Source of the DNA: Octopus vulgaris | Taxonomy: Eukaryota | Reading direction: 5' to 3' | DNA length: 64,000 nucleotides | NCBI GenBank assembly: GCA_951406725.2 | Contig: OX597824.1 | Span: 90,210,001-90,274,000 of the forward strand | Part shown: piece by piece, positions 22,261 to 32,935 of the stretch | How the letters are laid out: every line of letters begins with the position of its first letter | How positions within the stretch are numbered: position 1 is the first letter of the stretch | Program-made: the position numbers and the translations under genes | Notes under the pieces: model-generated | Database searches by the model: none | What the model saw: the letters and a program-made list of their open reading frames with translations, nothing else | What the model was told of the DNA's origin: nothing

Positions 22261-22949
22261 TTCTCTGAATAAATCTTTAATAAAAGTTTTGAAACAACGC
22301 GTTCTGGCCTGTGTGAGAACGTAGTTAAAGGGAGAAAACTCTTCAGTTCGTCTCTTCCCCCTCTTTCCATGTAAAGGGGATGGTTTCTTTCCCTCTTTTT
22401 ATAAATAATTTTTTTTTTTCAGTTATTGGACTGCGGTCATGCTGGGACACAAACTTAAAGGGTTTGCTCCAACTAATCGAACCCAGTTCTTATATTTATA
22501 AGCCTGGCATTAATTCTGTCAGTCTGTTTTGCCGAACCTCTAAGTCACGGAGACGTAAACATCGATTGTCAAGTGCTGTGAGCGAAGCTACACACACACA
22601 CACAATATATATATATACAGGCTTCGACACAGTTTTCTCCAATCGAATCCTCTCATAAGGCATTGATCAGCCGGGGGCTATAGTAGATGCCATGCTGTGA
22701 GACTGAACCTGAAACCACGCGTTTGCTAAGCAATCTTCCTCTTCATTTGACGTTTATAATTAATAAGATTAATAGATTTAGTTTTCTCTGAAAGTTTTCC
22801 CTTGAAATGAAATTTGATTTTCGCATTTTAAAGTTTTAATTCTACCATTTCCAAACTGCTTTTCTAATTTGACCCTTTAGCATTTAAACTGACCATGTCC
22901 AACTCAGATATTCTATTTATTTTATGTTCAAATTGACCAGATGTGACCT

Positions 22950-23010
22950 TAACCCTAACCCTAACCCTAACCCTAACCCTAACCCTAACCCTAACCCTAA
23001 CCCTAACCTA
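22950..23010 (-). repeat. Interstitial telomeric-type (TTAGGG)n, ~10 units
   Basis: (ccctaa)n directly visible. Confidence 0.9.
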
Positions 23011-25460: not shown

Positions 25461-25490
25461 AACTAATTCCTGTTTACTTCTCTTTCACAG
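25461..25490 (+). promoter_or_regulatory. Splice acceptor of a 5'-UTR intron upstream of the ASL-like ORF
   Basis: Branch-like ctaat, polypyrimidine tract ttcctgtttacttctcttt, cacag|G. Confidence 0.6.
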
Positions 25491-25700
25491 GTTGCCTGAC
25501 CAACTGGAAGAAATTTGGCCGTCTTCATCCTGTTATTGTAATAGTTCCATTTATTCCATTTTGTTTTATTTTTCCCATTTTATATTGTTTTTTTAATGAC
25601 CATTGTTCTGTCTTCCAACTCATCGTCTTGGAAACGAGCCATCACATCTCACTGATCTCCCTCCGTATTGCGCTCTTTGATCAATTCTACAAAACCCATC

Positions 25701-27350
25701 ATGCAGAGCCTTTACCGTTCTTTCATGAAATCATTCATCATGATCATCTTCACGGTGACCCTACTGCTGTTGATATTCGTTCTGGGTCCAATGAGTGCTT
25801 TCTACAGCAAGACAAGAGTGTCAACGCAGACGACTCCCACCAAGAAGACCTCAAAATCAAATCTCACCAACGGCACCCGTTTTAGACATAATTTCACCAA
25901 AAGCTTCCACGAAATATTGCATTTGACTCTAAAAGATGCCATCACTCAACCGTCAGTGGTAAACAGTTCCAAGTCCCACGGAACGTATCTCGTAACTTCT
26001 CCAAAAGACAATCTACAGAACTATGGCATTGCTCAAACTGTTGATTACAATCTCTTCAAAGAGGACATCGAATGCAGTAAGGCCTATGCCAAAAGCCTGA
26101 CAAGGGTCGGCCTCCTCACAAGAAAAGAGTGTCATAACATTTTGGATGGTCTTGAAATGATTGGAATGGAGTGGGAAAATGGGACGTTTGACTTGAAGCC
26201 GGACGATAAAGATGTCCATGCTGCTAATGAACGGCGCCTGGCAGAGTTGATTGGTTCAGCGGCAAATAAGTTAAATGCTGGCTGGGATCGCAATGACCAG
26301 TTAGCGACAAGTCTTCGACTGTGGCAGAAAAATGCCATCAGCGTTCATAAGAGTGATCTGATTGAGCTTTTGGGTGTGATCACTGAACGCGCAGAGAAGG
26401 AGCTTGGTGTTCTTATGGCTGGCTACACCGTGATGCAGCAAGCGCGACCAATCAGATGGAGTCACTGGCTGCTTAGCTTCGGTTGGAAAATCAAAAGAGA
26501 TATTGAAAGACTTATGGATCTACTTTCACGAGTTGACTTGCTGCCACTTGGAAGCGGGGCACTAGCAGGAAACCCTTTCGGGGTTGACCGAATGTTTTTG
26601 GCCAAAGAGCTCGGGTTTGCTGACATCATAGAAAACAGCATCGACGCTGTCAACGACCAAGACATCATCTTTGAATATGTTGCCTGGGCGTCAATCATGG
26701 CAGCTCACTTCCACAATTTGGCTAATGACCTTATTTTATACAGTACAAAAGATTTCGGGTTTGTTGAACTTTCCCATCCACTACACAATGTTCAAAATAA
26801 CGCCAGTAGCTTTTCGAACGAGAATGCTCGCAGCTTGGAAGAAATCCGTGGTAAAACCAATCACATCTTTGGTGAATACACCGACATGTTGAGTGTCTTG
26901 AAGGAATTCTCAAACCTACACAACAATGATTTCTTATCAAATGCCAAAGGAATGTTTGATATTTACAAGACAATTGTGAACGCTTTACCAATAACCAGAG
27001 CGATCCTCTCTTCTTTGAAAATAAACCCAGACAAAATGGAAGCTTCCCTAAGTGAAGATATGTTATTGCCAGACTTGGAATATTACATGGTACGAAAGGG
27101 CCTACCTGCTGACAAGGCGCACAGCCTGGTTGGAATGTGTGTCAGATTGTCACAGAAAAAGGGGGTCACGTTTTCGAAACTCTCTTTGGCTGAGCTTAGA
27201 TCTGTTAGTCCTGTTTTTGACCTCGATGTAAAATCTGTATGGAATTATAACAACAGCGTAGAGCAATACACACTTCCGGGAGGGACAAGTCACGCTAGTG
27301 TACAGCTTCAAATAGATCAGTTGAAGAAATGGATGTCGTTCCAAAGATAA
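25701..27350 (+). CDS. Argininosuccinate lyase-like protein (fumarase/ASL superfamily), single coding exon, N-terminal signal/anchor, probably catalytically inactive
   Basis: 549-aa ORF from ATG 25701 (catcATG); animal-ASL motifs DVHAANERRL, RNDQ, PIRWSHWLLS, LPLGSGALAGNPFGVDR, LYSTKDFGFVELS, YYMVRKG, SVEQY..GGT. Confidence 0.9.
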   Translation: MQSLYRSFMKSFIMIIFTVTLLLLIFVLGPMSAFYSKTRVSTQTTPTKKTSKSNLTNGTRFRHNFTKSFHEILHLTLKDAITQPSVVNSSKSHGTYLVTSPKDNLQNYGIAQTVDYNLFKEDIECSKAYAKSLTRVGLLTRKECHNILDGLEMIGMEWENGTFDLKPDDKDVHAANERRLAELIGSAANKLNAGWDRNDQLATSLRLWQKNAISVHKSDLIELLGVITERAEKELGVLMAGYTVMQQARPIRWSHWLLSFGWKIKRDIERLMDLLSRVDLLPLGSGALAGNPFGVDRMFLAKELGFADIIENSIDAVNDQDIIFEYVAWASIMAAHFHNLANDLILYSTKDFGFVELSHPLHNVQNNASSFSNENARSLEEIRGKTNHIFGEYTDMLSVLKEFSNLHNNDFLSNAKGMFDIYKTIVNALPITRAILSSLKINPDKMEASLSEDMLLPDLEYYMVRKGLPADKAHSLVGMCVRLSQKKGVTFSKLSLAELRSVSPVFDLDVKSVWNYNNSVEQYTLPGGTSHASVQLQIDQLKKWMSFQR

Positions 27351-32039: not shown

Positions 32040-32935
32040 ATGCTAGATTGCTGCTGTTAACAGCCGAGTCAAGAAGAGAAAGACATTGGTCTGTTGTTGC
32101 TAATAGCTGACACAGAGAGGGACTCCAGGTTGCTGTTGCTAACAGCTGACACAGAGAGGGACTCCAGATTGCTGTTGCTAACAGCCGAGTCAAGAAGAGA
32201 AAGACATTAGTTTGTTGTTGCTAATAGCCGACCCAGAGAGGGACTCCAGATTGCTGTTGCTAACAGCTGACACAGAGAGGGACTCCAGATTGCTGTTTCT
32301 AACAGCCGACACAGAGAGGGACTCCAGATTGCTGTTTCTAACAGCCGACACAGAGAGAGACTCCAGATTGCTGTTGCTAACAGCCGACACAGAGAGGGAC
32401 TCCAGATTGCAGTTGCTAACAGCTGACACAGAGAGGGACTCCAGATTGCAGTTGCTAACAGCCGACACAGAGAGGGACTCCAGATTGCAGTTGCTAACAG
32501 CCGACACAGAGAGGGACTCCAGATTGCTGTTTCTAACAGCCGACACAGTGAGGGACTCCAGATTGCTGTTGCTAACAGCCGACACAGAGAGGGACTCCAG
32601 ATTGCTGTTGCTAACAGCCAACACAGAGAGGGACTCCAGATTGCTGTTGCTAACAGCCGACACAGAGAGGGACTCCAGATTGCTGTTTCTAACAGCCGAC
32701 ACAGAGAGGGACTCCAGATTGCTGTTGCTGACAGCCGACCCAGAGAGGGACTCCAGATTGTTGTTGCTAACAGTCAACCCAGAGAGGAACTCCAGATTGC
32801 TGTTGCTGACAGCCGACACAGAGAGGGACTCCAGATTGCTGTTGCTAACAGCCGACACAGAGAGGGACTCCAGATTGCTGTTGCTAACAGCCGACACAGA
32901 GAGGGACTCCAGATTGCTGTTGCTAACAGCCGATG
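32040..32935. repeat. 39-bp minisatellite (~20 copies) with degenerate flanking units
   Basis: Unit gactccagattgctgttgctaacagccgacacagagagg. Confidence 0.95.

Follow-up and report, generated by a model that had tools for sequence, protein, structure and literature searches.

An octopod argininosuccinate lyase paralogue with erased active-site motifs, a conserved sequence and a predicted N-terminal membrane anchor

What becomes of an enzyme paralogue whose catalytic motifs have been erased while its reading frame is kept? The question is raised by a gene in a 64,000-nucleotide stretch of Octopus vulgaris DNA (assembly GCA_951406725.2, contig OX597824.1, forward-strand positions 90,210,001 to 90,274,000; hereafter the window). 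The gene, here called ASL2, lies on the forward strand at 25701–27350 and encodes an argininosuccinate lyase (ASL) paralogue of 549 amino acids without introns in the coding sequence (CDS). An earlier note on this DNA had described an uninterrupted open reading frame (ORF) with four altered motifs. All 549 codons are indeed open, and the changes were found at 26274–26300, 26430–26432, 26784–26828 and 26907–26948. Two features absent from that note are residues 1–110, with a hydrophobic helix at residues 13–29 and a stalk bearing N-glycosylation sequons, and an anchored, motif-intact orthologue in cuttlefish. With a probability of about 0.6, we conclude that octopod ASL2 is a glycosylated ectodomain without catalytic activity, probably a tetramer, that acts as a scaffold or in binding and is held by a predicted type II membrane anchor.

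Domain matches, homology and modelling agree that ASL2 has the three-domain helical fold of the aspartase/fumarase (ASL) superfamily. The ASL-fold domain spans residues 113–549 (26037–27347) and contains the Pfam domains Lyase_1 and ASL_C2 (PF00206 and PF14698). Duck delta2-crystallin was matched with an E value of 6e-120. The AlphaFold model, with a mean predicted local distance difference test score (pLDDT) of 75, matches delta-crystallin/ASL structures at a target-normalised template modelling (TM) score of about 0.9. The protein carries the database name argininosuccinate lyase because its TIGR00838 score of 387 bits passes the cut-off of 279.5.

The SS loop with the motif GSSxxPxKxN (PMC11880804) is catalytically essential across the superfamily, its Ser acting as base and usually a His as acid (PMC13411527); loop and His form the acid–base pair (PMC13411527; PMC2779060). 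In alignments with other ASLs, this loop is replaced by HNVQNNASSFSNENA in ASL2 (26784–26828), which lacks GSSxxPxKxN and contains a sequon at N367. Val244 (GTG, 26430–26432) stands in place of the catalytic His, which is His160 in human and goose ASL and His162 in duck delta2-crystallin (PMC2779060); PDB entry 1dcn is titled an inactive H162N mutant. At 26274–26300, HTGRS has become NAGWD with RNDQ retained; the exchange of His for Asn is not diagnostic alone, as PDB chain 1dcn also has Asn there. The STYNKDLQEDK segment is replaced by FSNLHNNDFLSNAK (26907–26948). In human numbering the losses comprise His160, M284, P285, K287, R236, Y321, K323, Q326, D328, K329 and S27, and all seven substrate-binding residues of a provisional list (S27, R236, Y321, K323, Q326, D328, K329) are changed, while D87, H89, R113-N-D-Q, T159 and E294 are retained. 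Val244 and the same motif losses occur in O. sinensis, O. bimaculoides, Argonauta and one Logan orthologue and are therefore not errors of the O. vulgaris assembly.

For comparison we used 117 other ASLs (P0005–P0121, the top matches), in which 157 alignment columns are at least 97% conserved. ASL2 retains 101 of these and its Argonauta orthologue 99, compared to 148 and 149 in two cuttlefish-cluster sequences and 156 in O. sinensis ASL1. The 56 columns changed in ASL2 include 19 of the 30 at the active site or SS loop and 37 of the 127 elsewhere (Fisher p = 0.0007, with a provisional active-site list). The earlier note had called the motifs specifically lost; the loss is better described as enriched there, and it is not exclusive to them. 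Judged from the sequence, octopod ASL2 is very probably catalytically inactive. Compared to argininosuccinate lyase (ArgH/ASL; TIGR00838), it has the same fold, three domains and predicted tetramer core, but lacks the catalytic His, the SS loop and several substrate-binding residues and has an N-terminal anchor and stalk. The database name is very probably wrong for the octopod protein.

The rewritten pocket could instead catalyse a different reaction, at the cell surface or along the secretory pathway. Its new residues W195, D196, V244, Q320, H407, N409, L412 and N414 are identical in Octopus and Argonauta, and D171, H173, R197, N198, D199, T243 and E380 are retained. The His is absent in some superfamily members (PMC11880804, PMC13411527), and catalytic residues can migrate in pseudoenzymes (PMC10211241). 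When the loop is aligned from its C-terminal end, Argonauta also has a Ser at the position of Ser369, so that some new chemistry is conceivable. However, the divergent members without the His still have the SS loop (PMC11880804), whereas the loop of ASL2 has lost the Pro, the Lys and the spacing, and a sequon lies within it in Octopus as well as in Argonauta. No other part of the domain is so poorly conserved (10 of 20 positions identical to Argonauta, with a 5-residue insertion), a variability that fits release from catalytic constraint. We regard a repurposed enzyme as rather improbable.

Loss of motifs in an intronless CDS would also be expected of a decaying processed pseudogene. Contigs were compared from four (X2, X17, X19 and X20) of the 24 sequencing runs listed with ASL2; X2 and X17 are guessed to be RNA, a guess made for 17 of the runs, in 5 studies, overall; none is recorded as such, and their tissues are coded. 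The X2 and X17 contigs share an identical loose end before 25489. This end has one genome match, located 32.3 kb upstream with a GT donor next to it, and one X17 contig covers 25489–27465, including the whole CDS. The X19 and X20 contigs continue into the genomic intron. The gene is thus spliced and expressed. Its 5′ untranslated region (UTR) is interrupted by a GT-AG intron of 32,324 bp, of which the 3′ part occupies 1–25490 of the window (acceptor AG at 25489–25490). Exon 1 ends some 6.8 kb before the start of the window, at G000:C11:90203166, directly before the donor, and the 5′ UTR portion of exon 2, placed from contigs and sequence, is 25491–25700.

The X17, X19 and X20 contigs differ from the window at 24 listed positions, one of which falls within the 3′ UTR and was excluded. 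The remaining 23 CDS differences, which mix alleles with species differences and for X19 come from 21 of 30 bins, comprise 22 synonymous and one nonsynonymous change; the mutation spectrum would predict 7.3 synonymous changes (p = 2e-10; omega about 0.013). Over the ASL domain, Octopus and Argonauta ASL2 are 92.8% identical, compared to 88.4% for ASL1, and of the 56 invariant columns that changed, 43 carry the identical new residue in Argonauta. ASL2 is under purifying selection. The frame is open in all orthologues found, the synonymous excess and the spliced contigs speak for a functional gene, and the Octopus–Argonauta identity exceeds that of the working ASL1, so that, provided the CDS differences are genuine, a pseudogene has a negligible probability. 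The earlier note's view of a catalytically degenerate paralogue kept under selection is therefore upheld, and its alternative of neutral evolution without expression does not apply.

The same note had considered that this might be the sole ASL of the genome. A canonical, motif-intact ASL1 is present on another contig, where 14 pieces align with the O. bimaculoides ASL (G000:C25) and carry HTGRSRNDQ, GYTHMQ, STGSSLMPQKKN and STYNKDFQ/EDK. The exon for about residues 58–92 of P0133 was unmatched, and the 7-kb stretch in which it would be expected (G000:C25:23431000-23438000) contains 100 N. The corresponding segment is found in the O. sinensis, O. bimaculoides and Argonauta models and is missing from the O. 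vulgaris model P0132, probably due to an assembly gap. Over the ASL domain, ASL2 is 49% identical to the ASL1 of its own genome. With its intronless CDS beside the intron-rich ASL1, its transcription and its purifying selection, ASL2 has marks of a functional retrogene, and retroposition from ASL1 would be the simplest reading of its origin. Cephalopod ASL1 proteins (P0133, P0013, P0019, P0015) have an N-terminal extension with a common KRPR motif, which we take to resemble a nuclear localisation signal.

The N-terminal part of ASL2 sets it apart from its relatives. The helix at residues 13–29 (25737–25787) is a predicted uncleaved signal anchor, with a Kyte-Doolittle 19-mer value of 2.79 compared to a maximum of 1.14 in the first 120 residues of the 117 other ASLs, none of which has a comparable helix there. 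It is modelled as a helix and is identical to ASL2 at 17 of 17 positions in Argonauta and 13 of 17 in the cuttlefish cluster. Residues 1–35 are identical throughout in Argonauta (35/35) and at 27 positions in cuttlefish P0004, whereas the stalk matches the latter at only 14 of 53. The Ser/Thr-rich stalk comprises residues 36–92 (25806–25976; pLDDT below 50) with sequons at N54, N57, N64 and N88. N54 and N64 recur in each of the six orthologues aligned, and the middle residue of the sequon varies (p about 0.02–0.04, from two sites in one alignment). A single hydrophobic helix after a short N-terminal tail is the layout of a type II membrane protein, and membrane anchoring of ASL2 is highly likely on these predictions. 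A search with residues 1–115 against 1.84 billion representatives returned P0002 and two repetitive multi-stretch matches. In the ESM Atlas the N-terminus had no match, and the whole protein matched ASL clusters only.

On which side of the membrane the domain would reside bears on a further alternative, in which the N terminus is outside and the dead ASL is cytosolic, where it tethers or regulates ASL1 or an arginine/nitric oxide-pathway complex at the membrane. The substrate and partners of ASL reside in the cytosol, and in mammals ASL also serves structurally within the nitric oxide synthase complex. For an intact cuttlefish enzyme a cytosolic location is the easier one to account for, and the charges flanking the octopod helix are balanced (N/C side +2/+2 in ASL2 and +2/+1 in Argonauta). 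However, no N-terminal flank contains an acidic residue, the stalk sequons are conserved, and 27 of 60 predicted interface residues are identical to ASL1. The flanks of P0004 (+3/-1) favour N-in/C-out by the positive-inside rule (PMC13220792). A lumenal or extracellular ASL domain appears likely from these features, and the cytosolic tether rather unlikely.

The nearest named relatives of ASL2 are those of Octopus sinensis, O. vulgaris, O. bimaculoides (98% identity) and Argonauta hians (88–89%). A third cluster with 54% identity to ASL2 includes a Sepia pharaonis record; among its members are P0004, P0125 (S. pharaonis CAE1276449.1) and P0130. These cuttlefish-cluster sequences are orthologues of octopod ASL2 with the same anchor and two of the stalk sequons, and both fall into one clade (support 100/99). 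The difference lies in the catalytic motifs, which the octopod forms have lost and the cuttlefish cluster retains (HTGRSRNDQ, GYTHLQ, STGSSLMPQKKN and STYNRDLQEDK). The cuttlefish protein is predicted to be active and would be an anchored ASL, possibly a lumenal or ecto-ASL. P0130 is a 533-residue product on a 104-kb ENA contig, which suggests that this gene is intronless as well. The named S. pharaonis model begins downstream of the anchor and thus lacks the N-terminal segment. One member of the P0004 cluster (P0125–P0131) is present on 39 Logan contigs. A search for further orthologues with the N-terminal region returned the three known clusters only (3 of 74 candidates), and the 120 listed of 555 matches to shorter proteins did not exceed 56% identity, so that no octopod-type fragment was among them.

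Octopod and cuttlefish ASL2 form a single clade in the two trees that included both, and in a 24-row animal tree it is sister to cephalopod ASL1 (96/93), a placement that carries a long-branch warning. These relationships suggest a duplication before the octopod/decapodiform split. On the octopod stem ASL2 accumulated about 1.05 changes per site, compared to 0.24 in ASL1, while the Octopus–Argonauta distance is about 0.10 for ASL2 and 0.16–0.17 for ASL1. The long stem and the short distance indicate a burst of change followed by stasis. The motif-intact, anchored state in cuttlefish places the anchor before the catalytic loss by parsimony. In the history we propose, an ASL mRNA copy would have been retro-inserted before the octopod/decapodiform split and would have gained a 5′ exon, the N-terminal anchor and the stalk. 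The active-site motifs would then have been kept in the cuttlefish lineage, whereas on the octopod stem pocket and SS loop would have been rewritten and the new sequence frozen.

Avian delta1-crystallin is the known case of a dead ASL, and it retains the catalytic motifs. It is an inactive duplicate beside an active copy (PMC2779060), as is predicted for ASL2. The parallel drawn in the earlier note finds no support in that form, since delta1-crystallin is a soluble protein with over 90% identity to the active delta2-crystallin (PMC2779060), whereas ASL2 shares 49% with ASL1, has erased motifs and is predicted to be membrane-anchored, with a conserved anchor and a sequon-bearing stalk. Delta-crystallins are soluble proteins without an anchor, which is at odds with the conserved hydrophobic helix. 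A soluble, delta-crystallin-like bulk structural protein, freed by N-terminal cleavage or used in the lens, is nevertheless suggested by the shared fold, by the recruitment of enzymes as crystallins in cephalopods (PMC13643694) and by the N-terminal segment, which ends in a potentially cleavable stretch of small residues. The first 35 residues are better conserved between octopus and cuttlefish (27/35) than the ASL domain (58%), which seems unlike a disposable signal peptide, and the literature passages retrieved on cephalopod crystallins name S-, omega-, O- and L-crystallin, with no ASL among them. Such a role is very unlikely.

Regarding the oligomeric state, a four-copy model of the domain-2 core (residues 197–444) scored 0.79, compared to 0.01 for the best of three controls, with a run agreement of at least 77% and a pLDDT of at least 73. 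Of the solved pairs, 21 of 30 passed the mark applied to this score, and of the animal pairs 7 of 16; none of 23 single chains did. As ASL tetramers have already been solved, the pass may reflect memorised structures and shows likeness only.

In the anchored, non-catalytic ectodomain that we favour, a short cytosolic tail, one anchor and a glycosylated stalk would carry an oligomeric ASL-fold head. The surface of this head, rewritten and conserved, would take part in binding or act as a scaffold, either within the secretory pathway or on the outside of the cell. Type II membrane pseudoenzymes are known from other families: DPP6/DPP10, the CD98 heavy chain and Drosophila neurotactin have dead enzyme ectodomains that serve as auxiliary subunit, scaffold or adhesion module. 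They share with the layout predicted for ASL2 a short N-terminal tail, one helix, a stalk and a dead ectodomain, an analogy of working mode. Their folds (peptidase, glycosidase, esterase) are unrelated and come from extracytosolic families, and no homology is claimed. More tentatively, and with doubt, coleoids might have moved a cytosolic fumarate-releasing lyase across the membrane, yielding an active lumenal or ecto-ASL in cuttlefish and in octopods a cell-surface receptor or adhesion module that binds a new ligand in its rewritten pocket. If this were true, the cuttlefish enzyme would imply that argininosuccinate or arginine is converted outside the cytosol, and two membranes could even be bridged by a tetramer with 222 symmetry standing on flexible stalks.

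Several observations weigh against the reading and history favoured here. Since 37 invariant residues outside the active site have changed too and only 28 of 60 predicted interface residues are identical to the cuttlefish orthologue, the assembly may differ. The number of sequons is uninformative, as the presumably cytosolic cuttlefish-type ASL1 P0015 has six, and the octopod flank charges leave the orientation undecided. The timing is based on three 90% clusters of ASL2, namely Octopus, Argonauta and one cuttlefish-containing cluster. Two wider trees put ASL2 outside the main animal group, beside Trichoplax or unresolved; the mixture-model version is an unfinished quick calculation in which long branches joined. 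The other of these two trees, with 54 rows and bacteria included, has ASL2 within the animal-containing clade (Shimodaira-Hasegawa-like approximate likelihood ratio test, SH-aLRT, 98; one partial Cercozoa row inside), near its base and without a resolved position. After removal of 15 partial, distant or near-duplicate rows from this set it is sister to cephalopod ASL1 (SH-aLRT 93). An approximately unbiased (AU) test did not reject a grouping of ASL2 with Chloroflexota-like ArgH (p = 0.118). In a scan of one of 64 database parts, a Chloroflexota ArgH was 59% identical to P0004, compared to about 61% for animal ASLs. Horizontal transfer of ASL2 is clearly unlikely. An ArgH group (L019; P0088, P0102, P0114) that includes a Chloroflexota metagenome-assembled genome is 59–65% identical to animal ASLs and branches near animal and fungal sequences.

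No paper on the ASL2 gene was found, including by six accessions, with subscription journals and bioRxiv supplements outside the scope of the search. The word 'argininosuccinate' was absent from the readable parts of the supplements of PMC9712504, PMC12240821, PMC9839350, PMC9795677 and PMC13218726, in which the gene could be listed by identifier alone. ASL2 would add to delta1-crystallin another dead ASL of independent origin, reached via motif erasure, and it is an ASL with a predicted membrane anchor. The anchored and motif-intact cuttlefish form would represent a living intermediate, and the proposed order of relocation and then catalytic loss is directly testable on a set of three, namely ASL1 and the ASL2 proteins of cuttlefish and octopus. 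The gene is a candidate novelty of cephalopods and of octopods.

Some minor features of the locus remain to be described. The surroundings of ASL2 are repeat-rich animal DNA. The 5′ UTR contains an upstream ORF of 19 codons (25596–25655) in the frame of the CDS, with a stop before the main ATG. The O. vulgaris model CAI9730668.1 (P0123, 631 residues) departs from the ORF after residue 461, at a GT at 27090–27091, and its C-terminal end is a 13-residue repeat. As the X17 contig is continuous through 27090, this tail is probably an annotation artefact. One frame of a 39-bp tandem array at 32095–32933 encodes the 13-residue repeat, and the first copies contain stops. Within the long 5′ UTR intron, a telomere-like interstitial array (ACCCTA)n of 10.5 copies is located at 22946–23008.
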